DNA of 64,000 nt from an uncultured Patescibacteria group bacterium (GCA_937921305.1 CAKZSU010000003.1:38831-102830), one strand, 5' to 3'. Numbered from the stretch's first letter, positions 24,577 through 64,000 are shown. The notes: generated by a model from the letters alone, not told the origin. Made by a program: numbers and translations.

Positions 24577-24664
24577 TCGCATTTTATGCGAATGAAGAAG
24601 AAAAAGAAGAAGAATCAGCAGCGTTATATATTAGAAAAGACAGAATCCATGAATTATGACAAAG

Positions 24665-28407: not shown

Positions 28408-28410
28408 AGA

Positions 28411-29688
28411 TTATTGCTTCCGTAGCATGTCTTGTTCAATCAAAAGGAGTCTATTATACTTTGCGACGCGTTCCCCGCGAGCAGGCGCGCCAAATTTCAC
28501 ATATTCTGATTGAATCCCTACCGCAATATCCGCGATATAACTATCATTCGTCTCGCCGCTTCTATGCGAAGTAATGCAGGTAATTCCATGTTTTTTTGCG
28601 ATGGCGACGACTTGTAAAAATTCTGTCAATGATCCAATTTGGTTTGGTTTCAGAAGAATCGCGGAGCATGCTTGTTCCTCAATTGCTTTTTGCAGTCTGT
28701 TTGGATTCGTCGCAAGAAGATCGTCTCCAATAATAAAAACTTCGTCCTTTAATAAATTCGTTATCTCTTTCCACGATTGCCAATCGTCTTCATCAAATGG
28801 ATCTTCGAGCAATAATAACCGATATTTTTCATGAATATCTTTCAAAAATTCTATGAATTCTTTCGAAGAAAATGGTCCGGATCGATCTTTTATTTCATAT
28901 CCGCGAGAGGTTTTGAAGTGCGATGCGGCGATATCAAGGCCAAGAAACACATCAACTGTCAATCGATATGGTGTTCGCCTTATCGCGTCTATAAGGATAT
29001 CCAATGCATCTGTATTTGTGTATAAATTTGGCGTGAATCCACCTTCGTCTCCCACAGAATGAGCGGCGTTTCTATCTTCTAACATCCGTTTCACCGCGTA
29101 ATAAATTTCATCGCCAATTCTTAACGCAAGAGAAAAAGGTTTATTGCTCGCTGGTAGCACATGAAATTCCTGAAAATCTAAATTGCCCGCGCCGTGCATG
29201 CCGCCATTGATTAAGTTAAATGTTGGCGTCGGCATGCGTTGAATCGGAATTGGCGACTGCATGAATGAAGAAAATACCGCGTTAATGTATCGATACAAAG
29301 GCATCCGTTGATAATTTGCCGCAGCAATAGCTGTTGCGATAGAAACACTCAAAATGGCGTTTGCTCCAAGCTTTGATTTATTCTCCGTTCCGTCAAGCTT
29401 AAGCATCAATGTATCGATTTCTTGTTGTTTCAACGCGTCTCGCCCGCGAAGTTTTGGCCCGATAATATTCATGACATTTGAGATCGCTTTCAACACGCCC
29501 ATGCCGTTATATCGTTTCTCATCGTTGTCTCGGAGTTCTACCGCTTCATATTTTCCGCGAGACGCTCCCGCGGGAACAGCTGCGGTTCCTCGATATCCGC
29601 TGTTCAGTACAACGGTTGTTTCTATGGTTGGATTTCCTCGAGAATCAAGAATTTCTCTCGCAACAATAGCGTAAATAGCGGAATTCAT
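28411..29688 (-). CDS. eno: Enolase
   Basis: 425 aa. N-terminal ILDSRGNPTIE motif and a conserved enolase C-terminal TIM-barrel region. Confidence 0.95.
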   Translation of the reverse strand: MNSAIYAIVAREILDSRGNPTIETTVVLNSGYRGTAAVPAGASRGKYEAVELRDNDEKRYNGMGVLKAISNVMNIIGPKLRGRDALKQQEIDTLMLKLDGTENKSKLGANAILSVSIATAIAAANYQRMPLYRYINAVFSSFMQSPIPIQRMPTPTFNLINGGMHGAGNLDFQEFHVLPASNKPFSLALRIGDEIYYAVKRMLEDRNAAHSVGDEGGFTPNLYTNTDALDILIDAIRRTPYRLTVDVFLGLDIAASHFKTSRGYEIKDRSGPFSSKEFIEFLKDIHEKYRLLLLEDPFDEDDWQSWKEITNLLKDEVFIIGDDLLATNPNRLQKAIEEQACSAILLKPNQIGSLTEFLQVVAIAKKHGITCITSHRSGETNDSYIADIAVGIQSEYVKFGAPARGERVAKYNRLLLIEQDMLRKQ

Positions 29689-29764
29689 ACAAGAATTTTC
29701 TTATTCACAGTGTATCATAGATCTCTTAAGAGAGAGAAGAGTAATGTCGAAAATAATATTTTAA

Positions 29765-32020
29765 TCACTTCTTCCCCAATCGTTGTTCAGCATTGAAGAT
29801 CGTTTCTCGGACATGGTAGATCGCGTCTGGATTGACGGAGACGCTTGTGATTCCCCATTCCACGAGTTTTTCAACCAAATCGGGATAATCCGATGGCGCT
29901 TGTCCACACATGGAAACCGTAATACTATGTTGAACGCATGTTTTTATCACTCGCTCAAACGCCCATAAGACCGCAGGATCGCGTTCAGAAAAATCATGTG
30001 CCACTTCGCTGTTGTCTCGATCCGTCCCAAGAATGAGCATCGTCAAATCATTTGATCCAATGGAAACGCCGTCAATCCCCACAGCGATGAAATCTTCTAA
30101 ACGAATCACATTTGTGGGAATCTCGCACATCAGCCACAATTTAAAATCATGACTCCGCTCCAGTCCTTCCTGCTCCATAATCCGTTGTACATCGCGCAAT
30201 TCTTCCGGCGTCCTCACAAATGGAATCATCATCCAAAGATTCGTATATCCAAATTCATTGCGGACCTTTTTTATCGCAGCAAGTTCCATGCGAAATACGC
30301 GCGGATCGGCAACATATCGAGCGGCTCCCCGAAATCCAAGCATAGGATTCGGCTCTTCCGGTTCAAAGGCATCTCCTCCTTTTAATCCTCGATATTCGTT
30401 TGTCTTAAAGTCTGTCGCTCGATACACGACCGGTTTTCCCTGAAACGCCTTGCAAAACACTTCTAGTTTTTCCGCGAGAGCAGAGACAAATGCATCTTCT
30501 TTTTGCTCTTCAATAAATTTCCTTGGATGAACTCCGATATCAGCGATCATAAACTCGGCTCGCAAGAGCCCAACGCCATCAACATGCATTTTGGAAACTG
30601 ATTCCGCTCTGCTTGGTTCCGCAAGATTGACATACACTTTTGTTGCTGTCTTTCGTTCTTCTCTCGGTATGGAAATTTTCGTTGTCTGCATATCAATTTT
30701 TCCTTCATAAATTTCTCCTCGGGTTCCATGTACCGTAATAACCATACCATCTTTTAATGTTGTCATCGCTCCTGTCGTTCCCACTACAGCGGGAATACCA
30801 AGCTCTCGCGAAACAATCGCCGCGTGAGAGGTCCTTCCGCCTCGCTCTGTCACAATCGCCACTGCTCTTCGCATCGCAGGAACAAAATCAGGATTTGTCT
30901 GTTCGGCAACCAATACATCCCCTTGTTCCACGCGATTGATTTCTTCCGCAGAACGAAGCACTTTCACAACTCCTGAAGCTACACCTGGACTTGCCGGATC
31001 ACCTTTTAATAAGACATGCAAAGACTTCTGAGATATTTCCTGATCGTTTGACGAAACCTGATGATCTATTGTCGTGACAGGTCGTGTTTGAACAATATAG
31101 AGTTTTCCTCCTTCCATCGCCCATTCAATATCCTGTGGAAAATAGTAATGCCGTTCCAGTCGGATGCCCAGATCCGCGAGTTGTTTTATGTGTTCATCGG
31201 ATAGCTTTTGTCGTTTTGCTTCTTCGGGATTGCACGAACGGATCAAGTTTCCTGTTCCTTGTTGCATCATCATCTTTTCTTGTTCTTTAACAATTTTTGT
31301 TAGAATCTCTCCTGTTTTTTTATCAACTTCATAATGATCGGGCGTTACCGCTCCTTGCACGATCATTTCTCCGAGCCCAATTATTGCTTCGATAATAATT
31401 TTTGTTTTGTCATTCGTTACAGGATCAACGGTAAACATAATCCCCGACGCTTCAGACTCGATCATTTTTTGCACCGGAACGGCAATTCCCACCTTAAAAT
31501 GATCAAATCGGTTGGTTGCTCGATAAAAGATAGCTCGGGCCGTAAAAAGAGAAGCCCACGCTTCTCGCACTTTGTCAACCACGTTCGCTTCGCCTTGAAC
31601 ATTTAAAAACGTTGATTGTTGTCCGGCAAACGACGCGCCAGGCAAATCTTCAGCCGTCGCTGATGAACGAACTGCAACCAACGCGTGACGAAACGGTCCG
31701 CTTAAAGTGAAATACGCGTTGATAATTTCTTTCGCAACATCTTTTGGAACGTTTGCATGAATAATCAAACTTTGAATCTTTCTCGCTATTTCTTCCAACG
31801 CGACCGTGTTGTTTACATCAAGAACAGATAACAGATCATGAATCTTGCTTCGAAGATGATCTTCTTCAAGAAATCGATAATACGCATGCGAAGTGACGAT
31901 AAATCCATTTGGTACAGGAAATCCCGCTTGAGCCATTTCTCCAAGATTTGCTCCCTTTCCGCCGACAAGATCGATATCTTCCTTATTTACATCTTTAAAC
32001 CATACCACATACTTCTCCAT
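29765..32020 (-). CDS. ppsA: Phosphoenolpyruvate synthase (pyruvate, water dikinase)
   Basis: 751 aa. N-terminal GGKGANLGEM and VPNGF motifs, RSSATAEDLPGASFAGQQ block, the phosphohistidine-domain motif RGGRTSHAAI, and a C-terminal PEP-utilizing TIM barrel. Confidence 0.9.
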   Translation of the reverse strand: MEKYVVWFKDVNKEDIDLVGGKGANLGEMAQAGFPVPNGFIVTSHAYYRFLEEDHLRSKIHDLLSVLDVNNTVALEEIARKIQSLIIHANVPKDVAKEIINAYFTLSGPFRHALVAVRSSATAEDLPGASFAGQQSTFLNVQGEANVVDKVREAWASLFTARAIFYRATNRFDHFKVGIAVPVQKMIESEASGIMFTVDPVTNDKTKIIIEAIIGLGEMIVQGAVTPDHYEVDKKTGEILTKIVKEQEKMMMQQGTGNLIRSCNPEEAKRQKLSDEHIKQLADLGIRLERHYYFPQDIEWAMEGGKLYIVQTRPVTTIDHQVSSNDQEISQKSLHVLLKGDPASPGVASGVVKVLRSAEEINRVEQGDVLVAEQTNPDFVPAMRRAVAIVTERGGRTSHAAIVSRELGIPAVVGTTGAMTTLKDGMVITVHGTRGEIYEGKIDMQTTKISIPREERKTATKVYVNLAEPSRAESVSKMHVDGVGLLRAEFMIADIGVHPRKFIEEQKEDAFVSALAEKLEVFCKAFQGKPVVYRATDFKTNEYRGLKGGDAFEPEEPNPMLGFRGAARYVADPRVFRMELAAIKKVRNEFGYTNLWMMIPFVRTPEELRDVQRIMEQEGLERSHDFKLWLMCEIPTNVIRLEDFIAVGIDGVSIGSNDLTMLILGTDRDNSEVAHDFSERDPAVLWAFERVIKTCVQHSITVSMCGQAPSDYPDLVEKLVEWGITSVSVNPDAIYHVRETIFNAEQRLGKK

Positions 32021-48768: not shown

Positions 48769-49389
48769 TTATCCTAAATGAGATTGATCATTCCATGTTA
48801 TAAGTCTCCAACGATTGTCAGTCCATTCGCAAACAGTTAATCCAGTATTGCCGATACGAAGCGCGTGATAAAAATCAAGAGCCATTCGCTGATTCAACGA
48901 TAAATCAAATATCATGACAGAGAGAATAACTTTTATAAAATCTGCATGAGACACCACAAGAATATATGTTTCTTTCATGGATATGACATGATGAAGAAAC
49001 AATAAAGCGCGATCTCGAAGATCAAAGAATGTTTCTTCGTCAGAATGACGAAATGTCGGATCATGAAATCGTTCATGAATCTGTTGCTTTATCGCAACAG
49101 CTTCAGGTTGATCATAGAGCATACCTTCAATAATTGTGGGACGTTTAACTTCAACAAGCAATGGCGTCCATCGAATCGGTTTTTTAATAACTGCTTGAAT
49201 AATCTCTGCTGTTTGTTTTGCCCTTTGCAAGGGGCTTGCAAGAATGACATCGATATCGATAGAACGAAACCGTTCAGCGAGTTTCTTTGCTTGATGAACG
49301 CCATGTGGAGACAACTCAGCTTCTTTTGGTTGATGAATACTTTTTGCGTTGAATGGCGTTTCTCCATGGCGCACCATGTACAGTTTCAT
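48769..49389 (-). CDS. Histidine phosphatase family protein (phosphoglycerate-mutase-like)
   Basis: N-terminal RHGET catalytic motif (MVRHGETPFN) and a later histidine. Confidence 0.75.
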   Translation of the reverse strand: MKLYMVRHGETPFNAKSIHQPKEAELSPHGVHQAKKLAERFRSIDIDVILASPLQRAKQTAEIIQAVIKKPIRWTPLLVEVKRPTIIEGMLYDQPEAVAIKQQIHERFHDPTFRHSDEETFFDLRDRALLFLHHVISMKETYILVVSHADFIKVILSVMIFDLSLNQRMALDFYHALRIGNTGLTVCEWTDNRWRLITWNDQSHLG

Positions 49390-49413
49390 GAGATATATTA
49401 TAATCGATCTATC

Positions 49414-50307
49414 ATGCGAACCATAGCAAAAGGACTTATTCGACTAACCCGTTACCAAGAATATTTAATGTTCGTTGTGATTAACACGTTGTTAGGATTT
49501 CTCTTCGCAAATCCAACAATCACGATCGATGTAATTGTTCATTTATGTATTGTTTTTATCGCGAATATGTTAAGCGCTGGATTCTCGTTTATGATCAACG
49601 ATGTGGAAGACGCTCCAGACGACGCAATCAGTCCCCAAAAGGCAAAACGAAATCCAATTTCAGCCGGAACTGTTTCAAGAAAAACTGGATTATTGGCGTC
49701 TCTTGGCGTTGCCGTCATCTCGATTGGAGCATATTATCCCCTTGGAACGCTACCATTTATCGGCGGCGTAGCGACGATTATTTTAGGATTTCTTTATTCA
49801 TGGAAACCAATACGATTAAAACGCATTCCTGTCATAGATCTTGTCAGTCATGGCTTGATGTTGTCAGGATTGCAATTTCTCTGCTCGTTTTTTACATTTT
49901 CTCCGTTTGTCGGATTCACTCCTGAACTCATACTTCCATTTATCTTTATCACCACAATTAGCATGTATGGAGAGCTATATAACGAAATTCGAGACTTCAC
50001 CTACGATAAAATCGCTGGTATTACACATACCGCAAGTGTCATTGGAAAAGCGAACACCCATATCCTAATGTATGCTCTTCTTTCGTTTGCGATGATTACG
50101 TTGCTTTATAGCGTTTTTCTTCATCTTATTCCCATGTGGTTTATTGCGTTATTTTTATTTGTTGGAGGAATATTTTTTCTAAATATCCTTCGAGGCATAT
50201 TCCTCTATAAACAACGTCTTCATATGGATATTATTCAAGATTATATCCTTTTGACGACCGGAATTTCGTTGATGTGTTGGGCTGGAAGCAGAATGCTAGA
50301 AATCTGA
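49414..50307 (+). CDS. UbiA family prenyltransferase
   Basis: Polytopic membrane protein with the aspartate-rich motif NDVEDAPDD. The start was set at the ATG at 49414, because the longer ORF in the track overlaps the convergent phosphatase gene. Confidence 0.7.
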   Translation: MRTIAKGLIRLTRYQEYLMFVVINTLLGFLFANPTITIDVIVHLCIVFIANMLSAGFSFMINDVEDAPDDAISPQKAKRNPISAGTVSRKTGLLASLGVAVISIGAYYPLGTLPFIGGVATIILGFLYSWKPIRLKRIPVIDLVSHGLMLSGLQFLCSFFTFSPFVGFTPELILPFIFITTISMYGELYNEIRDFTYDKIAGITHTASVIGKANTHILMYALLSFAMITLLYSVFLHLIPMWFIALFLFVGGIFFLNILRGIFLYKQRLHMDIIQDYILLTTGISLMCWAGSRMLEI

Positions 50308-53347: not shown

Positions 53348-53419
53348 TGAGCCCGCAGGGGATCGAACCCTGGACCAACTGCTTAAAAGGCAGCTGCTCT
53401 ACCACTGAGCTACAGGCCC
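53348..53419 (-). tRNA. tRNA-Lys, anticodon TTT
   Basis: Reverse complement begins GGGCCTGTAGCTCAGTGGTAGAGCAG. Anticodon loop CTTTTAA. T-loop GGTTCGATCCC. Confidence 0.8.
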
Positions 53420-54060: not shown

Positions 54061-55713
54061 TTATCGCATTTCACAAGCTCTAATGAAGCCAATGAACAAT
54101 GGATGAGGGGACAATGGCCGAGATCGATATTCTGGATGATATTGCGTGCCGATAAAGAATGGATGCTTTTCTTTCGGCAACTCAATAATTTCCACCAAAT
54201 GCTCAATCTTTGATCGTCCTGCAATGATGAGCCCTGCTTGCTCTACTTGATTCGCGTACTCGTCGTTGAATTCGTATCTATGCCGATGGCGCTCTCCGAC
54301 AATTCGTTCATTTGGATTGTCGTAATACGAGTATTTTTGATATAAGAGATCTGCTTGCGTGTCTTCTTTCACCACGCACTCCCATTTCCCCAGCCTCATC
54401 GTTCCGCCATATGCGCGACGACGAATAAACTCTTCTTGTCCTTCAATCATGTGAATTATCGGATGTGGGGTGTGCGGATCGCATTCTGTCGTATGCGCTT
54501 CTTCTAGACCAAGAACATGCCGAGCAAACTCTACCACCGCAAGCTGCATGCCGTAGCACAATCCAAGGTAGGGAACACCTTTTTCCCGCGCGTATCGTAT
54601 CGCGGAAATTTTTCCTTCAACCCCTCTCGATCCCCATCCAATCGGGACAATAATGCCATGCGTTCCGTCCAATAACGATACATCTCCTGATTCTAACAAT
54701 TCTGCTTGAATCCACTGAACGCGAACGTCAATATTTTCTTTCCACGCCGCGTGATCAATCGCGTCCATAAGCGCCGCGTAACTATCGCGGAGCTGATAGT
54801 CGCCTGTGGCAAAATATTTTCCGACAACTGCGATTTCCACTGTTGATCGTTTTGGCGCGTAAATAGTTTTGACCATATCTTCCCATGGAGACAAGCACAA
54901 TTCTCGAAGTGGAAGAGAAAATAACTGCAGAATTTTCTCATCAAATTTTTGTTCGGCAAACGATATGGGTACTTCATATGGACTTTTCATATCGACGCTA
55001 TCAATCACATGATCCGGCTCGACATTGCAAAACAACGCGAATCGCTCTCGCCGGCGATCGTCGATCGGTTGTTCCGAACGAGTTACAATAAAATCTGGCT
55101 GAATTCCCATGGAATTTAATGTTTTTACCGATAGTTGCGTTGGCTTGGTTTTTGGTTCTCCGAGATGCGTCGGTGTTGGAAGATAGCTAACATGCACATG
55201 AACAACCTTGTTGTCTTTATGCAGTTTCATAATTCTCGATGCTTCATAAAACAACACATTTTGATACTCTCCCGCTGTTCCCCCAAGTTCGACGATCACA
55301 ATATCCGCGTTTTCTTTCTCTCCGACGGTCATGATCCTCCGAATAATTTCGTCTGTCACATGAGGAATCGCCTCTACATCTTCTCCGCCATATTCAAAGT
55401 TTCGTTCTCGTTCAATGACTTTTTTATAAATTTGTCCCATCGTCACGAAGTTGTCTTGCGTCATATTTTTTCCGAGATATTTTTCATATGTCCCAAGATC
55501 CATGTCTGCTTCTGTCCCATCATCCATCAAAAACGGATCGCCATGCTCGATAGGATTGATAAGTCCGGCGTCGATATTTAAGTAATTTTCACATTTCACT
55601 ATTGTCACTCGGTATCCGCGAGATTGAAGAAGAAGCGCAATAGAAGCGGTCGTGACGCCTTTTCCTAATCCAGAGATGACTCCACCGGAAACGAAGATAA
55701 AATTTTGAAGCAT
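54061..55713 (-). CDS. pyrG: CTP synthase
   Basis: 550 aa. N-terminal synthetase domain (FVSGGVISGLGKG) and a C-terminal glutamine amidotransferase domain (GLCYGMQ). Confidence 0.95.
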   Translation of the reverse strand: MLQNFIFVSGGVISGLGKGVTTASIALLLQSRGYRVTIVKCENYLNIDAGLINPIEHGDPFLMDDGTEADMDLGTYEKYLGKNMTQDNFVTMGQIYKKVIERERNFEYGGEDVEAIPHVTDEIIRRIMTVGEKENADIVIVELGGTAGEYQNVLFYEASRIMKLHKDNKVVHVHVSYLPTPTHLGEPKTKPTQLSVKTLNSMGIQPDFIVTRSEQPIDDRRRERFALFCNVEPDHVIDSVDMKSPYEVPISFAEQKFDEKILQLFSLPLRELCLSPWEDMVKTIYAPKRSTVEIAVVGKYFATGDYQLRDSYAALMDAIDHAAWKENIDVRVQWIQAELLESGDVSLLDGTHGIIVPIGWGSRGVEGKISAIRYAREKGVPYLGLCYGMQLAVVEFARHVLGLEEAHTTECDPHTPHPIIHMIEGQEEFIRRRAYGGTMRLGKWECVVKEDTQADLLYQKYSYYDNPNERIVGERHRHRYEFNDEYANQVEQAGLIIAGRSKIEHLVEIIELPKEKHPFFIGTQYHPEYRSRPLSPHPLFIGFIRACEMR

Positions 55714-55719
55714 AGTTTA

Positions 55720-56355
55720 CTATAGCACGGATTTTGTCTTTGATTCAAGATATGCGCGACCATGGCCAACGGTTGTATTTACAGGAATCCCTTGCGCGCA
55801 GAACGGACATGACGCTTCATCAAACGCTTCCGCTTTAAGAATGCCAAGCGACGAAAACGGCGCGTCAAAGAGCTGATCATTCACCAATTCAGGATTTCTA
55901 TTCACCATCACTGCTACCGCAGCAACGCGTCCGCCGACAGCGCGAACACGTTCAACAACCTTTAACACAGATCCTCCCGTTGTCGTTAAGTCTTCTACGA
56001 CAAGAACGCGTTTATTTTGAACAAATCGATCATATCCTCGCGTAAATATGTGATGTTTATTCGCGTCTTTTTCCGTGTATACTCCAAACACTTCTTTCTT
56101 TTTTAAAATAGATAAATGATACGCAGTCCATTGAGAAAGAATAATCCCGCCTAACGCCGGACCGACCACCACATCAATATCCATTGATTGATAACGCTCC
56201 GCAAACATTTTCCCAACCATAGAGGCGAGTTCCGTATGCGGATATAACGCGTCTTTATTTACATACACGCTCCCGTGTTTTCCTGATGTATAAACAAAAT
56301 GATCATCGGTAAGCACCGCGCCAACAGAACGAAGTATATTAATAATGTCCATCAT
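55720..56355 (-). CDS. pyrE: Orotate phosphoribosyltransferase
   Basis: 211 aa with the PRPP-binding motif VLVVEDLTTTGGS. Confidence 0.8.
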   Translation of the reverse strand: MMDIINILRSVGAVLTDDHFVYTSGKHGSVYVNKDALYPHTELASMVGKMFAERYQSMDIDVVVGPALGGIILSQWTAYHLSILKKKEVFGVYTEKDANKHHIFTRGYDRFVQNKRVLVVEDLTTTGGSVLKVVERVRAVGGRVAAVAVMVNRNPELVNDQLFDAPFSSLGILKAEAFDEASCPFCAQGIPVNTTVGHGRAYLESKTKSVL

Positions 56356-56367
56356 ATATGTTCCTCC

Positions 56368-57147
56368 TTAGATTGTCGATCTATATATATTAATTTCTTC
56401 TCGAAGTGACATGGTCGCACTTCTTGGATCGCTAGCTTCTAGAATAGATCGAGATGCAGAGATAATAAGACGACCCTTTTTATCGCGTGTTATTCCTGAC
56501 GCGACCACGCGTTGTACTTCTCCTCCCTGCACACCGATACCGGGGACCAATAATGTCATATCACCAACAATTTGTCGAACATGATTCAATTCCTCTGGAA
56601 ATGTCGCGCCAACAACTAATAAACAATTTCCGTACCGCTTGTGCCATCCTGCGACATGTTCGGCAACATGCTGATATAATGGTTTGCCATCAATCATAAG
56701 ATCTTGAAACTCTTCACTTCCGAGGTTTGATGTTCGACAAAGGATGATGCATCCTTTGTCTGACCGTTCTAAAAACGGTCGCAGAGAATCTTCGCCGAGG
56801 TATGGATGAAGCGTAATCGCATCCGCTTTAATATAGTCAAATGCGAATGTTGCATATTGCTGGTTCGTATGCGACACATCGCCTCGTTTTGCGTCAATAA
56901 TAATCGGAAGATGAGGATATGTTTGAGCGATATAATCGCAGGTTTTTTTCATCTCATCGATATGTCCGGCTTCATAAAATGCGGAATTTATTTTATACGC
57001 GCAAACAAGATCATTCGTCGCGTCTATAATCCGTTTATTAAACGCAAACTGATCGTCCTGAACAATGTTTGAATCTGTATCAAGCCCAACACATACCAGT
57101 GAATCGTTGCGATCCATTGCGAATGAAAGTTTATCAAGGAATCTCAT
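56368..57147 (-). CDS. pyrF: Orotidine 5'-phosphate decarboxylase
   Basis: 259 aa with the IIIDAKRGD active-site region. Confidence 0.75.
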   Translation of the reverse strand: MRFLDKLSFAMDRNDSLVCVGLDTDSNIVQDDQFAFNKRIIDATNDLVCAYKINSAFYEAGHIDEMKKTCDYIAQTYPHLPIIIDAKRGDVSHTNQQYATFAFDYIKADAITLHPYLGEDSLRPFLERSDKGCIILCRTSNLGSEEFQDLMIDGKPLYQHVAEHVAGWHKRYGNCLLVVGATFPEELNHVRQIVGDMTLLVPGIGVQGGEVQRVVASGITRDKKGRLIISASRSILEASDPRSATMSLREEINIYRSTI

Positions 57148-58448
57148 ACAATCGCTTGATGAACGATTTGATCGTATTCGTCTTCAGACACTGTGCCTTT
57201 TTCGATTATGACATCACGAAATGATCTTTCTGTGTCAACGCACTCTTTAACAATTTTACTGATTGTTTCATATCCAAACTTTGGTATAAACAGCACAGCG
57301 ACTGCCGTAGAATGATTCAAATGTCTTTTGCACATATTCTCATTCGCTTCAAGCGAATCAATACACAAGAAACGAAACACGGTTGTTCCTTCTATGGCGA
57401 GGCGAAACGAATGAATACAGGAATCTGCAAGTATAGGAAACATGTTCGCCAATTCAAGCTGAGCTGATGTTGCTGCAAGTTGAACAGTCAACGCTTTTCC
57501 GGCAACAAGAAAATACAGTTGATTAATTGCTTCAGGAATTATTGGATTCACTTTTCCAGGCATAATCGTTGATCCTTTTTGCAATTCTGGAATTCGAAGC
57601 TCTGCTAATCCCCCGCGCGGACCACTTGCCATAAGACGGATATCATTTGCAATCTTTGAAAGATCCGCAAGATAGGCAACAAGCGCGTTGATAGACGCAA
57701 GAAAATCTCCTTGACTACTTGTCTCTGCCATCAAATTTTCCGCCGGAATAACGGGAATTTGAAGATGTTCCCGAAGAGCCTCGTATACCGCTTGTCTGTA
57801 TAGCTCAGACGCGTTGATGCCGTTGCCAATCGCTGTCCCCCCAAGATTAAGACGATAAAATATCTGGATCATATCTTTAAGTCGATCTCGATGTTTTTCG
57901 CAAATGGAAGCATACGCGGAAAACTCTGCGCTCAACGTGGTTGGCACCGCGTCTTGCAGATGCGTTCGTCCAAGTTTGCCAACAGTTTTCCATGTGTTTG
58001 CTTTTCTCAAAAACGCTTCCACGAGTTGATCCATAGACGAAACAAGAGATCTCAGAAGACGAATCATAACAATTTTTAACGCCGACGGATTAACATCGTT
58101 TGTTGATTGAGACGCGTTTACATGATCAAGTGGATGAATCGTGATGTTCGCGACTTCAGAAGCTATGGAAGCAATAACTTCATTCACATTCATATTGATC
58201 GATGTTCCAGCTCCACCTTGAAGCGCGCAAGTGACAAATTGATCGTCATACTTTCCATCGAGAATCATCTCGCACGCGGAAACAATTCCCGAAGATATGT
58301 CTTTAGAAATCCGACCATCGCGTTCATTCGCTATCGCCGCGGCTTTTTTTATCGCGACAATTGCGTATATCAATACTTTATCCACTCTATGGTAACTGAA
58401 TGGAAAATTTGCAATGGCTTGTGTTGTTTGTTCTCCGTAATATTTCAT
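57144..58448 (-). CDS. Class II fumarate hydratase / aspartate ammonia-lyase family lyase
   Basis: 434 aa. Fumarate-lyase signature GSTIMPGKVNP, QGGAGTSINMNVNEV block, and an N-terminal YGEQTTQAIANF region. Confidence 0.65.
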   Translation of the reverse strand: MKYYGEQTTQAIANFPFSYHRVDKVLIYAIVAIKKAAAIANERDGRISKDISSGIVSACEMILDGKYDDQFVTCALQGGAGTSINMNVNEVIASIASEVANITIHPLDHVNASQSTNDVNPSALKIVMIRLLRSLVSSMDQLVEAFLRKANTWKTVGKLGRTHLQDAVPTTLSAEFSAYASICEKHRDRLKDMIQIFYRLNLGGTAIGNGINASELYRQAVYEALREHLQIPVIPAENLMAETSSQGDFLASINALVAYLADLSKIANDIRLMASGPRGGLAELRIPELQKGSTIMPGKVNPIIPEAINQLYFLVAGKALTVQLAATSAQLELANMFPILADSCIHSFRLAIEGTTVFRFLCIDSLEANENMCKRHLNHSTAVAVLFIPKFGYETISKIVKECVDTERSFRDVIIEKGTVSEDEYDQIVHQAIV

Positions 58449-59602
58449 ATCATCCGCTGAATTTCATCGGCAAGTGTAGGACGCCACATTGCTCCGACAG
58501 CCGATTGAACTGCGTCAACGCCTCGTTTCATGTACGCGATATAATCATCGGGAGACACAACGCCCCCCACGCCAACAACAACAAAATCCCTCCATCCATG
58601 TTTTTGTTTTACCGAAACGATTCGCTCCACGGTTTCCAATCCGGCCCATTTAATCGCAACGCCGCAGATTCCACTCACTCGCCGAACCGGAGATCCGGGA
58701 AGCGCTTGATTTCCGTATTCATCAAGAACAACTGCGGGAATTGTATTGATCGCAACCACACCATCAGCAAATGTATGAATTCTATCAAGTAACGCCTCCA
58801 AATCATCTTGACGATCGTAAGGAAAATAGCCAATTTTGACTAATAACGGCGTATTCTTTTTCGCTCCATGCAACGCCTCCAGAACATCGGACGACATCTG
58901 AAGATCATGGCAAATTAACCCTTCCGATCCAAAATTGGGACACGATAAATTTACTTCATAAATTTGCGCGCCTGTTTCTTGCGAAAGACGGTACGTATTT
59001 ACGAAATCTTTAATATACTCATCTCGAGACATTGACTCTTTTTTCAATCCCATAAAACTGAGAATACATATGCGTCCCAATGACATATGATCAATTGCCA
59101 AACGAACATCCTGTTGCCACACTTCCGGCGGTTTAGATGGAACACCAAAGGAATTCGTTACACCTTCTTTTTCAACATCAATATCGTTTGTTGGCGGTAA
59201 TCCAATCACTGTCTCTTGCGGGTGAATATCATTAGTCGAGCTTTTTACGGGAATAACATTTGGAAATGGATGACAAGGATACACTTCGCTTCGGACTGTT
59301 TTGTAGGTATTCACGCAAAATCCTGCTCGCCACGCGGCGATCATAAACCTGCTATTCAAAAGTGGTCCTGCGGGAATGCCAAACGGCAAATCCACGGCGA
59401 ACCCGAGAAACGACAAGGAAGACTTTTTCTTTATTTCAACAACGAACGATGGGTCCGCAAATAAGCCAAACGGACCGTGATCATAGTTTTCTTCATAGGA
59501 TTTTGTCGCATCATAGAACGCGTTCATATAAGAAACCTCCCATCCTGATAGATCGTCGCTCCGCGAAAGACAACACGACGGACCTTTCCATAGGCTTCCC
59601 AT
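58445..59602 (-). CDS. pyrD: Dihydroorotate dehydrogenase. The true start is likely internal, because the listed ORF overlaps pyrC by about 79 nt.
   Basis: TIM-barrel DHODH pattern with YEVNLSCPN and GGV motifs. Confidence 0.7.
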   Translation of the reverse strand: MGSLWKGPSCCLSRSDDLSGWEVSYMNAFYDATKSYEENYDHGPFGLFADPSFVVEIKKKSSLSFLGFAVDLPFGIPAGPLLNSRFMIAAWRAGFCVNTYKTVRSEVYPCHPFPNVIPVKSSTNDIHPQETVIGLPPTNDIDVEKEGVTNSFGVPSKPPEVWQQDVRLAIDHMSLGRICILSFMGLKKESMSRDEYIKDFVNTYRLSQETGAQIYEVNLSCPNFGSEGLICHDLQMSSDVLEALHGAKKNTPLLVKIGYFPYDRQDDLEALLDRIHTFADGVVAINTIPAVVLDEYGNQALPGSPVRRVSGICGVAIKWAGLETVERIVSVKQKHGWRDFVVVGVGGVVSPDDYIAYMKRGVDAVQSAVGAMWRPTLADEIQRMI

Positions 59603-60561
59603 CCATCAAACGGAGACCATTGACATTTTGTGAAATATCCGTCTTCTCCAATGCGATATGGCTCGTCTGGATCGCATGTTACATATGTATCTTTTTGATC
59701 CGGCACAGAAAAAATACGCTTTGGACGATCATACAACAACGCCAACACAATCTTCATCGGAAGTCGTTTATCATGAACCGCCCGAAGCAATAATCCAAGC
59801 GTCGTTTCAAGTCCGGGCATACCATACGCAGGCTCAGCAACTGTTTTTTCTTCTTTTGTATGGGGCGCGTGATCGCTTTCAACAATATCGATCGTGCCGT
59901 CATGAATCCCTTCCCACAGCGCATCTTGATCGTCCTGATTTCCAATTGGCGGTTTCACTCGAAAAAAACCGCTAAGACGAGACTCGTCATCGGTCGTTAA
60001 AAATAGATGATGTGGGCAGACGCCACAGGTAATCTGATCGTAGATCGCTTTTTCTTTTTGAATAATTTGCACATCTTCCGCTGTTGCCACATGGCACACA
60101 TGAATCCTCCGTTGATGTTTTCTCGCAAGAAAAAGCATTTTTGGAAGCATGTTCCCCTCGGCGTGAACTAGAATCGGTTTTAATGAACGCCACGCGGCAA
60201 AAATCCGATCTAAAAGTTCTTCTTCGGTAACCACGTACTTCCCGGTTGTTTCATTGCAATAAATTTTCAATCCAAACACTGCAGAGTCATTCCATGCCTG
60301 CGGAAATGTATCAAGATTATTTCCGTCTGTTCCGTAGTGAAATCCGATGTCGCATCGCGCTTTTTCTTTACTCAACGAAACTTTTTGTTCCAACGCTTCA
60401 ATTGAAAATGTGGGAATAGGATTGTTTGGCATGTCAAGAATATAGGTAAATCCTCCGGCAATTGCCGCGCTGCTTCCTGTCAAAAAATCCTCTTTGTGTG
60501 TCGCACCCGGCTCGCGCAAATGCACATGAATATCAATCAAGCCGGGTAATTGAACAATCAT
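59524..60561 (-). CDS. pyrC: Dihydroorotase (cyclic amidohydrolase)
   Basis: N-terminal metal-binding motif DIHVHLREPG and DHAPH motif, in a pyrimidine-operon context. Confidence 0.7.
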   Translation of the reverse strand: MIVQLPGLIDIHVHLREPGATHKEDFLTGSSAAIAGGFTYILDMPNNPIPTFSIEALEQKVSLSKEKARCDIGFHYGTDGNNLDTFPQAWNDSAVFGLKIYCNETTGKYVVTEEELLDRIFAAWRSLKPILVHAEGNMLPKMLFLARKHQRRIHVCHVATAEDVQIIQKEKAIYDQITCGVCPHHLFLTTDDESRLSGFFRVKPPIGNQDDQDALWEGIHDGTIDIVESDHAPHTKEEKTVAEPAYGMPGLETTLGLLLRAVHDKRLPMKIVLALLYDRPKRIFSVPDQKDTYVTCDPDEPYRIGEDGYFTKCQWSPFDGWEAYGKVRRVVFRGATIYQDGRFLI

Positions 60562-61526
60562 ATAGACACCTCGGGCAACAGAACAGATGCAAGAAGGGCC
60601 ATGCGCGCATACATGCCGTTTTTCATCTGATCTCGCAGATAGACCGCTCGCTCATCATTATCAACAGCTTCGTCGATCTCCCCTAAGCGAGGAAACGGAT
60701 GCATAATAATGCTTTGTTTTTTCATCTTTTTTACCATTTCCATGTCAACTTTATACGCTCCCTGCACCTGAGCATATAAATCTTCAGACATGTACTCTTT
60801 TTTTACTCGAGTTACATACAACACATCAATATCCGATAAAATTTCATCTACTGATTCCAATTCAAAAAATTTCATGTGATGGTTGAGTAAATATGATTGA
60901 ACACGCTCTTGAATACCAACGCCTTTTGGTGAAACAAAATATAACTGAACATTCGGGAAATGAACAAGCGCTTTCGCCAAGGAATTTACTGGTCGATAAT
61001 GAAATAAATCGCCAAGCATTGCGATCTTCAAGCCATCAATACTACCCAGTGCATCCTGTATTGTAAAGAGATCTTGAAGACATTGCGTCGGGTGCTCGCC
61101 GATCCCGTCTCCAGCGTTTATCACTGGACATGGAGCAATATCCGCGGCTCGTTGCGCTAACCCAACATCGGGATGACGAAGAACGATAACATCGGCGTAA
61201 TTTGCGAATGTTTGAATCGTATCGTCAAAAGTCTCTCCTTTTTGCAACGATGTGTGAGCCATGCCATGCATGGGAATAAATCCGCCGCCAAGACGCTGCA
61301 TCGCGGTGATAAATGAACTAAATGTTCTGCTTGATGGCTCAAAAAATAACGCGGCGAGAATTTTATGCGAAAGAATAGACACACCGCCAAACTTTGTCGC
61401 AATATCTTTCATGCGCTGTGTGAGCGCAAGGATGTACGTAATATCGTCTTTTATATACTCTTCAGAAGACACAATGTCTTTCTGAAAGAATGGATTATTC
61501 ATAGTTTTTGTATATACCATGACCAT
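60558..61526 (-). CDS. pyrB: Aspartate carbamoyltransferase catalytic subunit
   Basis: STRT carbamoyl-phosphate-binding motif (FFEPSSRTFSSF) and HPTQ motif. Confidence 0.9.
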   Translation of the reverse strand: MVMVYTKTMNNPFFQKDIVSSEEYIKDDITYILALTQRMKDIATKFGGVSILSHKILAALFFEPSSRTFSSFITAMQRLGGGFIPMHGMAHTSLQKGETFDDTIQTFANYADVIVLRHPDVGLAQRAADIAPCPVINAGDGIGEHPTQCLQDLFTIQDALGSIDGLKIAMLGDLFHYRPVNSLAKALVHFPNVQLYFVSPKGVGIQERVQSYLLNHHMKFFELESVDEILSDIDVLYVTRVKKEYMSEDLYAQVQGAYKVDMEMVKKMKKQSIIMHPFPRLGEIDEAVDNDERAVYLRDQMKNGMYARMALLASVLLPEVSI

Positions 61527-64000
61527 GGATATACATTCACCGATTTTTCTGTATAAGAAAGAATAGATCGCAAGAATACTTCAAATTTTCTTCTGTTTGT
61601 GAACAACGGAATTCCTTTATCAATACTCATCCTTCGTATTATATACCCATCGGAGATCATATCGCGACTTGGAGAAAACCCCTTTGTTTTATCAGAAATC
61701 ACCACGGCGACATCAATAGATTGAAAACGGAAAAGATCTTCCACTGTTGGACGAAGAGACTCATAAATTTTTCCTATAACCCCAGACGGTATGCCATATT
61801 TCTGAAGAAATGCCGATGTTCCGGAAGTAGCGTAAATCGCAAATCCATGCTCAAACAATGTTTTTGCAATAGGAACAAATTGTTGTTTTTCTTCGTCTCC
61901 GCCAACGCTTATAAAGACTTTTTTATGCAGAGGATATTTTACGCCTGTCGCAAGAATTGCTTTTAAAAACGCTTCTTCAAGCGTTTCTCCGAATGCGGCG
62001 ACCTCACCGGTAGATGTCATCTCCACGCGAGGCAACGGATCAGCGCCACGAAGTTTATGATACGAAAATTGAGGCGCTTTTACGCAGACATATGGAATAT
62101 GTGTTTTTTCATGAAAAGAAACATGTTTTTCGAGCAGTACATCTGCCGCAATCGAAATAAAATTTATATCCATTGCCTTGCTCACGAAAGGAAAACTTCG
62201 AGACGCCCTTGCGTTGCATTCAATAACATATGGTACATCGTCAACAATAAGATATTGAATATTAAATGTACCGTGAAGCCCTAGCGATTGGATAATCTTG
62301 CTTGTTTGCTCTCGAAGCGTCGATTGAAGACTCTTTGACAATGAATAAGGAGGAAAGACTAGTGTTGAATCTCCAGAATGCACTCCAGCTTCTTCAATAT
62401 GCTCTGAAATTGCAAACGCGACAACATCGCCGTGCTGGGCGACGCCATCCACATCGCATTCTTTTGCATGAGGATAAAATTTGCTAATAACTAGTTTATA
62501 TGAAAAAATATGCTCTTTGTATATCGTCAAATAGGAGATCAACTCTTCATCAGAATATATAATACTCATAGATTTTCCTGATAGCACAAAAGACGGTCTA
62601 ATGATAATTGGATATCCAATCTCATTCGCTGCTCGAATCGCTTGCTCGTCAGAAACGCATTCTCTCCACGGCGGTTGATGAACACTTAATTCATCAAGCA
62701 ACGCGCTAAATTCTTGTCTATTTTCGGCTTTTCTAATAACTTTTGGAGACGTTCCCAATATGGGAATCTCATAAACCGAAAGATGGGGCGCGAGATTATT
62801 TGCTATCTGACCACCAACAGACACAACAATCGGCGCTTGTTCGTGTTCATAAATATCGAGAATGCGTTCAAGCGTCAATTCTTCAAAATACAAAACATCA
62901 GACATGTCGAAATCCGTGGATACTGTTTCTGGATTGCAATTCACAACGATTGTTTTCATTCTTTGTTGACGAAACGACTGAACCAATGTAACCGCAGACC
63001 AATCAAATTCCACCGATGTCCCGATCGAGTATGGACCACACCCTAACACAATCGCCTTCCGTTCTTGATCGTCTGACTCTCTATAATGTTCAGACACGCT
63101 CCCTCCGTATGTCATATAGAGATAATTCGTTTTCGCTGGAAATTCTCCTGCTGTCGTATCGATAACATGAACGACAGGCTCAATACGCGATGCTTTTCTC
63201 ATGCGACGAATGTCATCTTCTGTTTTTTCTAAACAATCAGCGATTTGCTCGTCTGAAAATCCATGTTGTTTTGCGAGACGAAGCGTTTGCTCTGAGAGAT
63301 TCTCTTTTTCTGACACCATCATCTTATATACATCCACAATCCGTTTGAGTTGAGATAAAAACCACGGATCGATATCAGTAAGCGCGTGAATTTCTTCGAT
63401 TGATATGCCAGCATACAAAGCCGAGCAAATCGTAAACGGACGAAGCGATGTTGGACACTGCAACATCGTTGTTAATTCTTCCTTCGTATAGTAAAGAAAT
63501 CGCTTATCAATAAGCCCTTTATACCCATCATTCAGCATGCGAGCGGCTTTTTGGATCGCTTCTGGAAACGACCTCGCAATACTCATCACTTCTCCAACGC
63601 TTTTCATTTCACTTCCAATCGTTACTTCAACAAGGTCAAACTTATCTAAATCCCATCGCGGCATCTTTACCACAATATAATCTAACGCGGGCTCAAAAAA
63701 TGCCGTCGTCTTTTTGGTAATATGATTTTGAAGGTCAGGAAGCGTTTTGCCGATCGCGAGTTTCGCCGCGACATACGCGAGAGGATAGCCAGTCGCTTTT
63801 GACGCAAGAGCAGAAGAACGAGATAAACGAGCATTTACTTCAATCACGCGAACCTCACCATTCTTTGGATTTAAGGCGAATTGAATATTACACTCTCCCA
63901 CAACCCCTAAATCTCGAATCACATCAATCGCTTTTTGACGAAGTCCATAATACTCCTCATTGGTTAATGTTTGCGACGGAGCAACAACAATTGATTCACC
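61499..64000 (-). CDS. carB: Carbamoyl-phosphate synthase large subunit. The 5' part of the gene lies beyond the window end.
   Basis: ORF runs open to the window edge. Matches the CarB ATP-grasp, oligomerisation and second ATP-grasp regions (IQFALNPKNGEVRVIEVNARLSRSSALASKATGYPLA) and the C-terminal MGS-like domain. Confidence 0.9.
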   Translation of the reverse strand, partial: GESIVVAPSQTLTNEEYYGLRQKAIDVIRDLGVVGECNIQFALNPKNGEVRVIEVNARLSRSSALASKATGYPLAYVAAKLAIGKTLPDLQNHITKKTTAFFEPALDYIVVKMPRWDLDKFDLVEVTIGSEMKSVGEVMSIARSFPEAIQKAARMLNDGYKGLIDKRFLYYTKEELTTMLQCPTSLRPFTICSALYAGISIEEIHALTDIDPWFLSQLKRIVDVYKMMVSEKENLSEQTLRLAKQHGFSDEQIADCLEKTEDDIRRMRKASRIEPVVHVIDTTAGEFPAKTNYLYMTYGGSVSEHYRESDDQERKAIVLGCGPYSIGTSVEFDWSAVTLVQSFRQQRMKTIVVNCNPETVSTDFDMSDVLYFEELTLERILDIYEHEQAPIVVSVGGQIANNLAPHLSVYEIPILGTSPKVIRKAENRQEFSALLDELSVHQPPWRECVSDEQAIRAANEIGYPIIIRPSFVLSGKSMSIIYSDEELISYLTIYKEHIFSYKLVISKFYPHAKECDVDGVAQHGDVVAFAISEHIEEAGVHSGDSTLVFPPYSLSKSLQSTLREQTSKIIQSLGLHGTFNIQYLIVDDVPYVIECNARASRSFPFVSKAMDINFISIAADVLLEKHVSFHEKTHIPYVCVKAPQFSYHKLRGADPLPRVEMTSTGEVAAFGETLEEAFLKAILATGVKYPLHKKVFISVGGDEEKQQFVPIAKTLFEHGFAIYATSGTSAFLQKYGIPSGVIGKIYESLRPTVEDLFRFQSIDVAVVISDKTKGFSPSRDMISDGYIIRRMSIDKGIPLFTNRRKFEVFLRSILSYTEKSVNVYPWSWYIQKL

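Follow-up and report, generated by a model that had tools for sequence, protein, structure and literature searches.

A tiny, non-respiring Patescibacteria (CPR) bacterium carries, embedded in its operon for de novo pyrimidine synthesis, a gene for an aspartase-type lyase that overlaps the gene for a divergent dihydroorotate dehydrogenase (DHOD). We propose, giving this reading about half of our confidence, that the lyase turns aspartate into fumarate and that fumarate serves as the oxidant for dihydroorotate in a host devoid of a TCA cycle and a respiratory chain. If this is true, a scheme known physiologically in enterobacteria has been hard-wired into one operon.

Organization of the operon

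The operon lies on the minus strand of the 64-kb window (the whole stretch of DNA analysed here), and all the genes named in the original prediction are present (Table 1). The chain carB-pyrB-pyrC-pyrD-lyase-pyrF is joined by 4-nt ATGA overlaps at all five junctions, and pyrE, pyrG and rplS follow after gaps of 12 nt (pyrF-pyrE), 6 nt (pyrE-pyrG) and 22 nt (pyrG-rplS). This confirms the co-directional arrangement first described, with 4-nt overlaps on both sides of the lyase and rplS after pyrG. The start of pyrD was placed at 59527, the source-contig call, and not at the upstream ATG of a 385-aa ORF; the start of pyrB was corrected to 61502. The pyrG...rplS order is also found at two other loci (L086 and L096).

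Table 1. Genes of the pyrimidine operon and its downstream flank, with the model scores on which each call is based.
Feature	Coordinates	Strand	Evidence and remarks
carB, carbamoyl-phosphate synthase large subunit	61499..64000, runs past window	-	3' 807 codons; TIGR01369 935 bits, NF003671 859 bits
pyrB, aspartate carbamoyltransferase catalytic chain, 314 aa	60558..61502	-	TIGR00670 303.8 bits, above cut-off 237
pyrC, dihydroorotase, 345 aa	59524..60561	-	TIGR00857 257.8 bits and many DHOase equivalogs, each below its cut-off
pyrD, putative dihydroorotate dehydrogenase, 360 aa, divergent family PyrD360	58445..59527	-	Pfam DHO_dh 53.7 bits
Lyase, predicted aspartase-type, 434 aa, short CPR clade	57144..58448	-	Lyase_1 and FumaraseC_C; NF008909 482.5 bits
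pyrF, OMP decarboxylase, 259 aa	56368..57147	-	TIGR02127 212 bits, above cut-off 110.6
pyrE, orotate phosphoribosyltransferase, 211 aa	55720..56355	-	TIGR01367 122 bits, TIGR00336 84.5 bits
pyrG, CTP synthase, 550 aa	54061..55713	-	NF003792 645 bits, above cut-off 308
rplS, ribosomal protein L19	53610..54038	-	TIGR01024 119 bits
tRNA after rplS	53348-53419		71.4 bits

On the source contig, carB encodes 1070 aa, the first ~270 of which fall outside the window; directly 5' of it sits carA, again with a 4-nt overlap (L001 2680-3741). The reported lack of carA came from where the window happens to end, and the operon comprises the complete canonical pyrimidine pathway. Neither pyrI, the gene for the small ATCase regulatory subunit, nor a gene for a PyrR protein was found in the window and its flank, in line with the original note, and no PyrR RNA element was found either. 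The window also holds a fermentative gene set.

The embedded lyase

The lyase belongs to the aspartase/fumarase superfamily, as first suggested (Pfam Lyase_1, 256.6 bits against a cut-off of 27; FumaraseC_C, 36.1 against 32.5). Among NCBIfam models, the AspA subfamily NF008909 scores above fumC_II (TIGR00979); the AspA models are the best-scoring families, yet all stay below their curated cut-offs (NF008909, 482.5 against 510; TIGR00839, 431.7 against 681.2; NF011092, 374 against 876). Compared with PDB sequences, the lyase matches aspartases at 315-335 bits and named fumarases at no more than 290 bits. The 13 best matches in a fold search are aspartases (TM 0.92-0.97, with 39-41% identity to solved aspartases), and the fold is common also to FumC (TM 0.92-0.95). 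Sequence identity amounts to 38% with E. coli AspA, 41-42% with Bacillales aspartases of ansAB-type loci, and 34% with E. coli FumC, and in a neighbor-joining tree the lyase groups with the aspartases, well away from E. coli FumC.

The active site points the same way. When aligned with aspartases from Bacillales and with AspA and FumC of E. coli, the lyase clade proves to carry the AspA-type signatures GGAGTS, QSTND, DAVP, and NPxxPE, where the FumC-type counterparts are GSGTQS, SSND, DATP, and NPTQCE. The catalytic set T82, S115, T116, N117, T162, H163, S293, K299, and N301 is invariant in 41 CPR homologues and corresponds to the AspA-type residues Thr101, Ser140, Thr141, Asn142, Thr187, His188, Ser318, Lys324, and Asn326, in AspB numbering. 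The SS loop reads GSTIMPGKVNP, as initially reported, with Thr in place of the second Ser of the clade consensus GSSIMPGKVNP and of the superfamily signature GSSxMPxKxN.

The ORF and the alignment both bear out the earlier remark that the protein is shorter than canonical aspartases (~468-478 aa). No ORF longer than these 434 aa is possible, since the first start codon after the upstream stop is the one used, and the protein falls about 35-40 aa short: the ~20 N-terminal residues of canonical aspartases are missing (the match begins at about AspA residue 22), and at the C-terminal end, too, the chain stops well before theirs. The same holds for its relatives, a short clade spread across CPR/Patescibacteria; the median length is about 440 aa in this clade and 476 aa in non-CPR aspartases.

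Adenylosuccinate and argininosuccinate lyases were rejected as identities (purB, 75.2 bits against a cut-off of 326; argH, 66 against 279.5), as was FumC (TIGR00979, 357.5 against 664.75; NF009089, 282.5 against 840), all four motifs being the AspA variant. The classification by HMM and tree that the original prediction had called for thus assigns the lyase, on its sequence, to the aspartase type and not to FumC, PurB, or ArgH. With aspartate ammonia-lyases (AspA, AspB, and B. subtilis AnsB; EC 4.3.1.1) it shares the fold, the three conserved regions, the SS-loop catalytic Ser, and the signatures; it differs from them in length, in its sub-threshold score, in the SS-loop Thr, and in its setting, which is a pyr operon or the neighborhood of a DHOD rather than an asparaginase gene (ansAB) or DcuA. 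With FumC it shares the superfamily, the fold, the SS-loop signature, and a His at position 188, but the FumC-specific residues are absent.

A dihydroorotate dehydrogenase outside the known classes

The product of the pyrD gene, here named PyrD360, occupies the position of pyrD in a complete operon and has the hallmarks of the DHOD superfamily: a DHO_dh domain (PF01180, with the score in Table 1 against a cut-off of 27), an FMN TIM-barrel fold (AF2 model, pLDDT 92.8), and the Lys/Asn residues together with a catalytic base in N-x-S-[CS]-P-N. The invariant residues are K76, N125, N193, C196, N198, K231, and N261, of which the Lys and Asn positions presumably bind orotate and FMN, as judged by L. 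lactis DHODA numbering. The base motif, NLSCPN, has the Cys of class 1 enzymes.

The original prediction asked whether PyrD is a class 1A, 1B, or 2 enzyme, and made the fumarase role conditional on class 1A; the protein fits none of the three. Class-specific NCBIfam models give 21-60 bits, where their cut-offs range from 267 to 619, the top hit among PDB sequences reaches only E = 3e-5, and the structure is equidistant from all known DHOD classes. For class 1A, the dihydroorotate oxidase model NF002702 scores 46 bits against 301. PyrD360 resembles class 1A enzymes (L. lactis PyrDa, S. cerevisiae Ura1, trypanosomatid DHODH) in its Cys base, in its full Lys/Asn set, and, within the DNA seen, in having no electron-transfer subunit. 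It is unlike them in its 18% identity to L. lactis DHODA, in being ~50 aa longer and equally distant from 1B, 2, and DPD, and in two additional segments, an N-terminal extension that is strongly conserved (FYDxxKxYEENYxxGPFG) and an insertion of ~27 aa. Class 1B is contradicted by the scores (TIGR01037, 60 against 270; NF005574, 56.5 against 269) and by the lack of a PyrK homologue in the window; the true class 1B pairs of other CPR loci exceed both cut-offs. Class 2 is contradicted by the Cys in place of Ser and by a best model score of 51.6 against 267, and the motif of the N-terminal extension is conserved and polar, unlike the hydrophobic class 2 helices at L014 and L016. We therefore regard PyrD360 as a separate, uncharacterised DHOD family outside classes 1A, 1B, and 2, as far as sequence comparison can tell. 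Fusions to OPRT occur among relatives (P0244).

Neither the 64-kb window with its flank nor the surroundings of the 11 sampled PyrD360 loci contain a gene for a PyrK, Frd, or Fe-S partner. The lack of a partner subunit fits a stand-alone enzyme using a small soluble acceptor.

Linkage of the lyase to dihydroorotate dehydrogenases

A DHOD gene lies within the fetched flanks of 14 of 50 CPR lyase loci; a naive binomial test, calculated for 52 loci and uncorrected for shared ancestry, gives P of about 3e-15. The 14 loci show at least six architectures and both gene orders, and three non-orthologous kinds of DHOD stand beside the lyase: PyrD360, class 1B PyrD with PyrK, and a class-2-like enzyme. 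Of the 14 DHODs, 13 carry the Cys motif N.SCPN, and four of those 13 have the scaffold of class 2; a Ser-type class 2 enzyme is found at L014. At two loci (L095 and L097), PyrD360 and the lyase form a pair without other pyr genes, in L097 with a 4-nt overlap. A DHOD is also the sole pyr neighbor in L027/L030 and L016/L018/L022/L036; overall, it is the commonest pyr neighbor of the lyase and the sole one in at least nine loci.

Pyr neighbors were seen at none of 32 non-CPR aspartase loci, nine of which, in Bacillales, we read as the ansR-ansA-aspartase arrangement. The pyr linkage is thus conserved within CPR, and it supports the functional tie to the pathway that was originally suggested.

Proposed role of the lyase

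Class 1A DHODs use fumarate (PMC5881531). Anaerobic PyrD function in Enterobacteriaceae and Pasteurellaceae needs fumarate, which comes from L-aspartate deaminated by AspA (PMC10634366), and Patescibacteria have no TCA cycle, oxidative phosphorylation, or respiratory chain (PMC11665869). In the scheme we favor, the embedded aspartate ammonia-lyase would convert L-aspartate to fumarate and ammonium, and PyrD360, a single-subunit, Cys-type enzyme, would pass two electrons from dihydroorotate to fumarate, yielding succinate. With the aspartase as the fumarate source, aspartate would be used twice per UMP, as the ring precursor taken by PyrB and as the source of the oxidant. The sole redox step of pyrimidine synthesis would become independent of quinones, the respiratory chain, and the TCA cycle, and the ATGA translational coupling would keep the ratio of the DHOD to the fumarate-producing lyase constant. 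We infer both which way the lyase runs and that PyrD360 hands its electrons to fumarate. This role is supported by the aspartase-like character of the lyase, by the Cys base of PyrD360, by the linkage of the lyase specifically to DHOD genes, by the lack of pyr linkage at non-CPR aspartase loci, and by the fermentative gene set of the window. A putative fumarate reductase in the same setting also speaks for it: at L004 and L032, a TfrA/FrdA-like flavoprotein and an FrdB-like Fe-S protein are encoded within the pyr operon beside the lyase. The presence beside the lyase of class 1B enzymes, which are NAD-linked through PyrK, and of the Ser-type class 2 enzyme of L014 argues against it, as neither is expected to reduce fumarate directly.

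The enterobacterial AspA sink (PMC10634366) would have the same outcome as the scheme proposed here, in that aspartate-derived fumarate finally takes the electrons of dihydroorotate without O2 or nitrate respiration. That route is indirect, running from a class 2 PyrD through menaquinone to the membrane-bound FrdABCD, and its genes are dispersed and co-regulated, whereas in the CPR operon the aspartase would be translationally coupled to a soluble Cys-type DHOD, and the DNA seen shows no sign of a quinone or Frd system.

The first alternative, which we consider somewhat unlikely, is that the aspartase runs in the amination direction, making L-aspartate from fumarate and NH4+ to feed PyrB, and perhaps also recycling the fumarate that reactions of the PurB/ArgH type set free. 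An aspartase-type active site is identical for either direction, and the reaction is reversible, its equilibrium favoring amination at high ammonium, which counts against the fumarate role. So does the carA-carB-pyrB-lyase arrangement of L008 and L074, where no DHOD is nearby. The flavoprotein pair of L004 and L032, if read as SdhAB-like, would fit a path from succinate through fumarate to aspartate, but succinate oxidation requires a high-potential acceptor, which is missing in these organisms. The window shows no fumarate-producing gene, and in bacteria lacking a TCA cycle (PMC11665869) a net source of fumarate is not evident. PyrB supply was one of the two roles originally put forward and is now the less supported, as the DHOD and not PyrB is the most frequent, and sometimes the sole, pyr neighbor.

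A general-purpose CPR aspartase, serving aspartate catabolism or nitrogen handling, owing its place in the operon to common use of the aspartate pool or to an inherited order, and not coupled to any one pyr enzyme, is in our view unlikely. About 60% of the CPR lyase loci (~30 of 50) have no pyr context, many of them lying in a conserved syntenic block of housekeeping genes (ddl, an rnhB-like gene, hsp20, ftsK, and recA), so the lyase has a more general role too. Likewise, 7 of the 11 sampled PyrD360 loci (L082, L083, L086, L087, L089, L094, and L096) have no adjacent lyase; both observations weigh against the fumarate role. One ancestral order, however, does not easily explain the diversity of architectures, the two gene orders, the three DHOD types, and the stand-alone pairs, and such adjacency is absent from all 32 non-CPR loci.

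That the lyase is a class II fumarase, interconverting fumarate and malate for a fumarate-dependent DHOD, is very unlikely. A malic enzyme gene lies directly upstream of the lyase in seven loci, which fits a fumarase and is unexplained by an aspartase; the order DHOD-malic enzyme-lyase at L014 would give a path from pyruvate through malate and fumarate to succinate. The fold and the conserved His at the FumC H188 position are also compatible with it. Against it stand the fumC_II score, the tree, the fold ranking, and the clade-wide replacements (S98 to A, SSND to STND, DATP to DAVP, NPTQCE to NPxxPE), which extend to the malic-enzyme-linked members. From the original proposal of a fumarase serving a class 1A PyrD, the comparative data favor keeping the fumarate link to PyrD; the enzyme itself is aspartase-type by sequence and would make fumarate from aspartate rather than exchange it with malate.

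A drift of the truncated lyase towards an N-substituted aspartate, such as N-carbamoyl-aspartate split into fumarate and urea in a bypass or salvage of the early steps, is highly improbable: the superfamily includes several such enzymes, the clade is distinct, truncated at both ends, and just under the AspA subfamily cut-off (features that also weigh against the fumarate role), and some related operons without carAB/pyrB carry odd ArgG-like or AsnA-like MGS fusions, yet the canonical pathway is complete in the window operon, and the substrate-contact residues, presumed from the AspB-aspartate structure, are all invariant in the clade, the window protein differing only at S319 (Thr), so that a larger N-substituent would not obviously fit.

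Operon layout and regulation

The minus strand at the end of the window encodes carB (truncated where the window ends), pyrB, pyrC, pyrD, a Lyase_1/FumaraseC_C protein (the lyase), pyrF, pyrE, pyrG, and rplS, with pyrD and pyrB starting as called on the source contig. The carB/pyrB, pyrB/pyrC, pyrC/pyrD, pyrD/lyase, and lyase/pyrF junctions each read as an ATGA overlap, and spacers of 12, 6, and 22 nt separate pyrF-pyrE, pyrE-pyrG, and pyrG-rplS, respectively. These gene models and junctions bear out the original prediction of a pyr operon with an embedded lyase and short overlaps. Its remark that carA is not seen holds for the window but not for the operon: carA lies immediately 5' of carB on the source contig, with another 4-nt overlap, and appeared to be missing because the window edge cuts before it. 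That contig, a metagenomic one of 565 kb in ENA/NCBI, contains the identical lyase sequence.

An Rfam scan of the window returned tRNAs only, with no PyrR element or riboswitch, and consensus promoter and terminator counts were at or below the shuffled expectation. A CBS-pair protein of ~150 aa, which may be a nucleotide-sensing regulator, stands ahead of the pyr operon in three loci of Patescibacteria (CPR): L001, which is the window's own contig just past the window end, L017, and L086. In L001, the interval from it to carA additionally encodes a DUF6909 protein of 545 aa.

Positions of features in the window and in homologous loci
Sequence	Position	Strand	Feature
Window	2660-3456		Six tRNA genes
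Window	17019-32020		Fermentative cluster
Window	49045-50307		UbiA-family prenyltransferase
Window	53.6-64.0 kb	-	pyr operon
Window	57144-58448	-	Lyase, 434 aa
Window	58445-59527	-	pyrD, 360 aa
Window	from 61502	-	pyrB, 314 aa
L001	503-2663		CBS-pair and DUF6909 protein region
L017	2677-3138		CBS-pair protein
L086	3169-3627		CBS-pair protein
L017	3281-5886		Synthase-like/MGS-like fusion, amidohydrolase
L086	4428-6997		Synthase-like/MGS-like fusion, amidohydrolase
L003	4474-6984		PyrD360 fusion with MGS domain
L004	1688-4045		Flavoprotein and FrdB-like protein
L032	3312-5641		Flavoprotein and FrdB-like protein
L027	10061-10978		D-2-hydroxyacid dehydrogenase
L038	9163-10167		D-2-hydroxyacid dehydrogenase
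L045	1246-2151		D-2-hydroxyacid dehydrogenase
L016	3719-4831		Class-2-like DHOD, NISCPN
L018	11188-12300		Class-2-like DHOD, NISCPN
L022	10538-11650		Class-2-like DHOD, NISCPN
L036	8846-9985		Class-2-like DHOD, NISCPN
L097	718-4064		VKOR-DHOD fusion, NiFe-hydrogenase subunits

Identity of the lyase

The top NCBIfam models for the lyase are aspartate ammonia-lyases (NF008909, 482.5 bits, narrowly missing formal membership at the cut-off of 510; TIGR00839, 431.7 bits), while the class II fumarase model gives 357.5 bits against a cut-off of 665. The scores for purB (75 bits) and argH (66 bits) rule out both of these families. Matches among PDB sequences reach 315-335 bits for aspartases but no more than 290 for named fumarases; identity is 41-42% to Bacillales aspartases, whose loci we take to have an ansR-ansA-aspartase arrangement, and, for the E. 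coli enzymes, 38% to AspA and 34% to FumC. In a neighbor-joining tree rooted on FumC, the CPR lyases form one clade on the aspartase side, and the whole clade carries the aspartase state of the discriminating motifs: QGGAGTS (TGSGTQS in FumC), QSTND (SSND), DAVP (DATP), and NPxxPE (NPTQCE). The equivalents of AspB T101, S140, T141, N142, T187, H188, S318, K324, and N326, as numbered in the AspB literature, are invariant across 41 CPR homologues. The AF2 model (pLDDT 93.7) has aspartases as all 13 of its best PDB matches, with TM scores of 0.92-0.97. The reading frame cannot be extended; relative to canonical aspartases, ~20 N-terminal residues and a portion of the C-terminal tail are missing, a clade trait (CPR median 440 aa versus 476 aa). 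By every sequence criterion, the lyase is AspA-like, and we conclude that it belongs to a distinct CPR clade of short, predicted aspartase-type enzymes; the earlier choice among FumC, AspA, PurB, and ArgH falls, on HMM scores and phylogeny, to the AspA type.

A divergent dihydroorotate dehydrogenase family

The window PyrD passes Pfam DHO_dh weakly (53.7 bits), scores 21-60 bits against all class-specific NCBIfam models for dihydroorotate dehydrogenase (DHOD), whose cut-offs are 267-619, and finds its best PDB sequence match at E = 3e-5 over half of the protein. Its family, PyrD360, comprises 568 or more clusters at 50% identity, most of them from Patescibacteria (profile search, E <= 1e-30), and some members are fused with OPRT or with AsnA-like/MGS modules. 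An N-terminal extension with strong conservation and an insertion of ~27 aa mark the family; 60 homologues of 357-372 aa are invariant at K76, N125, N193, C196, N198, K231, and N261, which are spaced like K43, N67, N127, C130, N132, K164, and N193 of L. lactis DHODA. In the sampled loci, the neighbours are always pyr genes, or PRPP synthetase and riboflavin kinase, and a PyrK-type subunit, the electron-transfer partner of class 1B, is never adjacent; tblastn found no hidden PyrK, Frd, or malic enzyme within the window.

Classes 1A, 1B, and 2 were each tested and none is satisfied at the family level, so the suggestion of a class 1A enzyme keeps only its Cys-type class 1 chemistry. Because of the pyr-gene neighbours and the conserved DHOD residues, we read PyrD360 from its sequences as the pathway's DHOD, with class-1-type Cys chemistry and outside the three known classes. 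Fungal 'class 1A-like' dihydrouracil oxidases have been described (PMC10395836); for PyrD360, the operon position and OPRT fusions argue for a DHOD.

Members P0123, P0238, P0160, and P0221 bear the NCBI names 'diguanylate cyclase', 'hypothetical protein', or 'dihydroorotate oxidase', the first being a likely propagating misannotation. The OPRT fusion (P0244) measures 552 aa. Fusions of PyrD360 with an AsnA/class-II-aaRS-like domain and an MGS domain (L003, P0243, P0254) have sizes of 836 and 807 aa, or 1134 aa where a PRT-like C-terminus is added.

Linkage of lyase and DHOD genes

A genome scan with the lyase yielded 50 CPR loci and 30 in other phyla; a further two (L066, L067) group with non-CPR aspartases, bringing the non-CPR total to 32, and none of these 32 has pyr genes nearby. 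A DHOD lies inside the fetched flanks in 14 of the 50 CPR loci, and at least four more have other pyr genes near the lyase. The linked DHODs are of three kinds, confirmed with NCBIfam: PyrD360 (L003, L017, L020, L033, L034), class 1B PyrD with PyrK (L002, L027, L030, L038), and class-2-like (L014, L016, L018, L022, L036). Gene order varies, with the lyase upstream in some loci and downstream in others, and the gap between DHOD (or PyrK) and lyase is under ~110 nt wherever they are direct neighbours. Sampled from the PyrD360 side, the lyase is directly downstream in 4 of 11 loci (the window, L084, L095, L097); in L095 and L097, the pair stands with no further pyr gene. Of the 14 lyase-adjacent DHODs, 13 have Cys in N-x-S-C-P-N, four of them on a class 2 scaffold, whose catalytic base is normally Ser.

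These four (L016, L018, L022, L036) share the class 2 N-terminus, and the L016 protein, the only one scanned, passes the NCBI class 2 (quinone) model; in three of the loci, only a small cupin gene separates DHOD and lyase. L097 also encodes a 513-aa fusion of a VKOR domain and a class-2-like DHOD with a Cys base, beside NiFe-hydrogenase small and large subunits and 2 kb from the isolated pair.

A possible source of fumarate for dihydroorotate oxidation

Dihydroorotate oxidation is the sole redox step of pyrimidine synthesis, and its balancing is a classic limit on anaerobic growth; most Patescibacteria are thought unable to make nucleotides. To our knowledge, nothing but fumarate is established as connecting an aspartase biochemically with a DHOD. 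Fumarate is reduced by class 1A DHODs (PMC5881531), and in enterobacteria and Actinobacillus the deamination of L-aspartate by AspA supplies the fumarate needed by anaerobic PyrD (PMC10634366). The closest relatives of the lyase and PyrD are from Patescibacteria, e.g., Gottesmanbacteria, Levyibacteriota, Roizmanbacteria, and Saccharimonadales. Elsewhere in the window are genes for phosphoketolase, ADP-forming acetyl-CoA synthetase, iPGM, enolase, PPDK, and UvrABC, with no TCA or respiratory genes among the remaining window genes, which fits the description of the phylum as fermentative, without respiration, a TCA cycle, or a respiratory chain (PMC11665869). In a cell of this kind, an aspartase encoded in the operon would be the obvious supplier of fumarate.

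The operon aspartase would turn aspartate into fumarate, the oxidant for the DHOD step, and aspartate would be used doubly, as building block and as oxidant source. We put the chances about level that the lyase supplies aspartate-derived fumarate as electron acceptor for dihydroorotate oxidation. This reading draws on an adjacency of DHOD and lyase that is specific and has arisen repeatedly, on the pairs that stand alone, on the Cys bases, on PyrD360 having no partner subunit, and on sister operons that carry a pair resembling fumarate reductase. In these sister operons (L004, L032), pyrB and a long DHOase flank a flavoprotein of TfrA/FrdA-like type (610 bits, cut-off 718) and an Fe-S protein of the FrdB family, next to the lyase, and neither locus has a DHOD; the pair could act for the pathway as a soluble fumarate reductase, or even replace the DHOD. 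The FrdB-like protein is a short 2Fe-2S protein, and the DHOase there has 452 aa. From textbook midpoint potentials (~ -258 mV for orotate/dihydroorotate and ~ +31 mV for fumarate/succinate), the conversion of dihydroorotate and fumarate to orotate and succinate is calculated to be strongly exergonic, at roughly -56 kJ/mol. The predicted fumarate link to PyrD is favoured by the linkage pattern, but through an aspartase-type lyase and not a fumarase.

In a more tentative extension, PyrD360 would be a fourth, hitherto unrecognised DHOD class, a soluble dihydroorotate:fumarate oxidoreductase with a dedicated truncated aspartase, forming a self-contained aspartate-fuelled redox module with which pyrimidines could be made in bacteria that have neither a respiratory chain nor a TCA cycle. 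PyrD360 and lyase would possibly form a physical complex, and the stand-alone pairs could have a role extending past pyrimidine synthesis, as a fumarate-reductase or electron-sink module driven by aspartate.

Several observations sit poorly with the fumarate reading: the lyase also has PyrD+PyrK pairs and, once, a Ser-type class 2 DHOD as neighbours, many PyrD360 operons have no lyase, and most CPR lyase genes lie away from pyr genes. An unlikely alternative, to which the carAB-pyrB-lyase loci L008 and L074 lend support, is that the lyase works in the amination direction and feeds PyrB; it is somewhat less likely still that it is a general aspartate enzyme riding in the operon. The FumC-type fumarase of the original prediction was weighed seriously, as malic enzyme stands immediately upstream of the lyase in seven Paceibacteria-type loci (L007, L014, L028, L029, L035, L040, L042), an adjacency that aspartase activity alone leaves unaccounted for and that a fumarase would explain better; the signature residues, tree, and fold ranking make it improbable as the main reading. 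A new N-substituted-aspartate lyase is the least probable, and very much so.

A full-text literature search turned up no account of an aspartase within a pyr operon, an aspartase-DHOD link, or a PyrD360-type DHOD in CPR. Fumarate-dependent DHODs and aspartate as a fumarate source are already known; new are their hard-wiring in an operon, the clade of truncated aspartases, and a DHOD family outside the existing classes. If correct, supply of fumarate by the lyase would give a concrete answer to redox balance in pyrimidine-making Patescibacteria lineages, delineate a large DHOD family so far without annotation, sharpen the metabolic reconstruction of CPR genomes, and suggest aspartate supply as a cultivation variable. 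If wrong, there is still an ordinary pyr operon with an attached aspartate-pool enzyme.

Other neighbouring genes

A D-2-hydroxyacid dehydrogenase accompanies the lyase and a PyrD(1B)-PyrK module in L027, L038, and L045, which hints at a redox-balancing gene set. In L017 and L086, one fusion protein joins an argininosuccinate-synthase-like part to an MGS-like domain (the allosteric domain of CarB); this gene and that of the amidohydrolase of 316-328 aa that follows precede PyrD360-pyrF-pyrE-pyrG. These operons are without carAB, pyrB, and pyrC, and the gene set may offer some CPR a different way to dihydroorotate. The window has a UbiA-family prenyltransferase gene within a few kb of its pyr genes, and so do the Levyibacteriota-type PyrD360 loci L087 and L089. 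The fermentative genes of the window (phosphoketolase to PPDK) are mixed with uvrA, uvrB, and lexA, and the six tRNA genes at 2.7-3.5 kb stand in a row.
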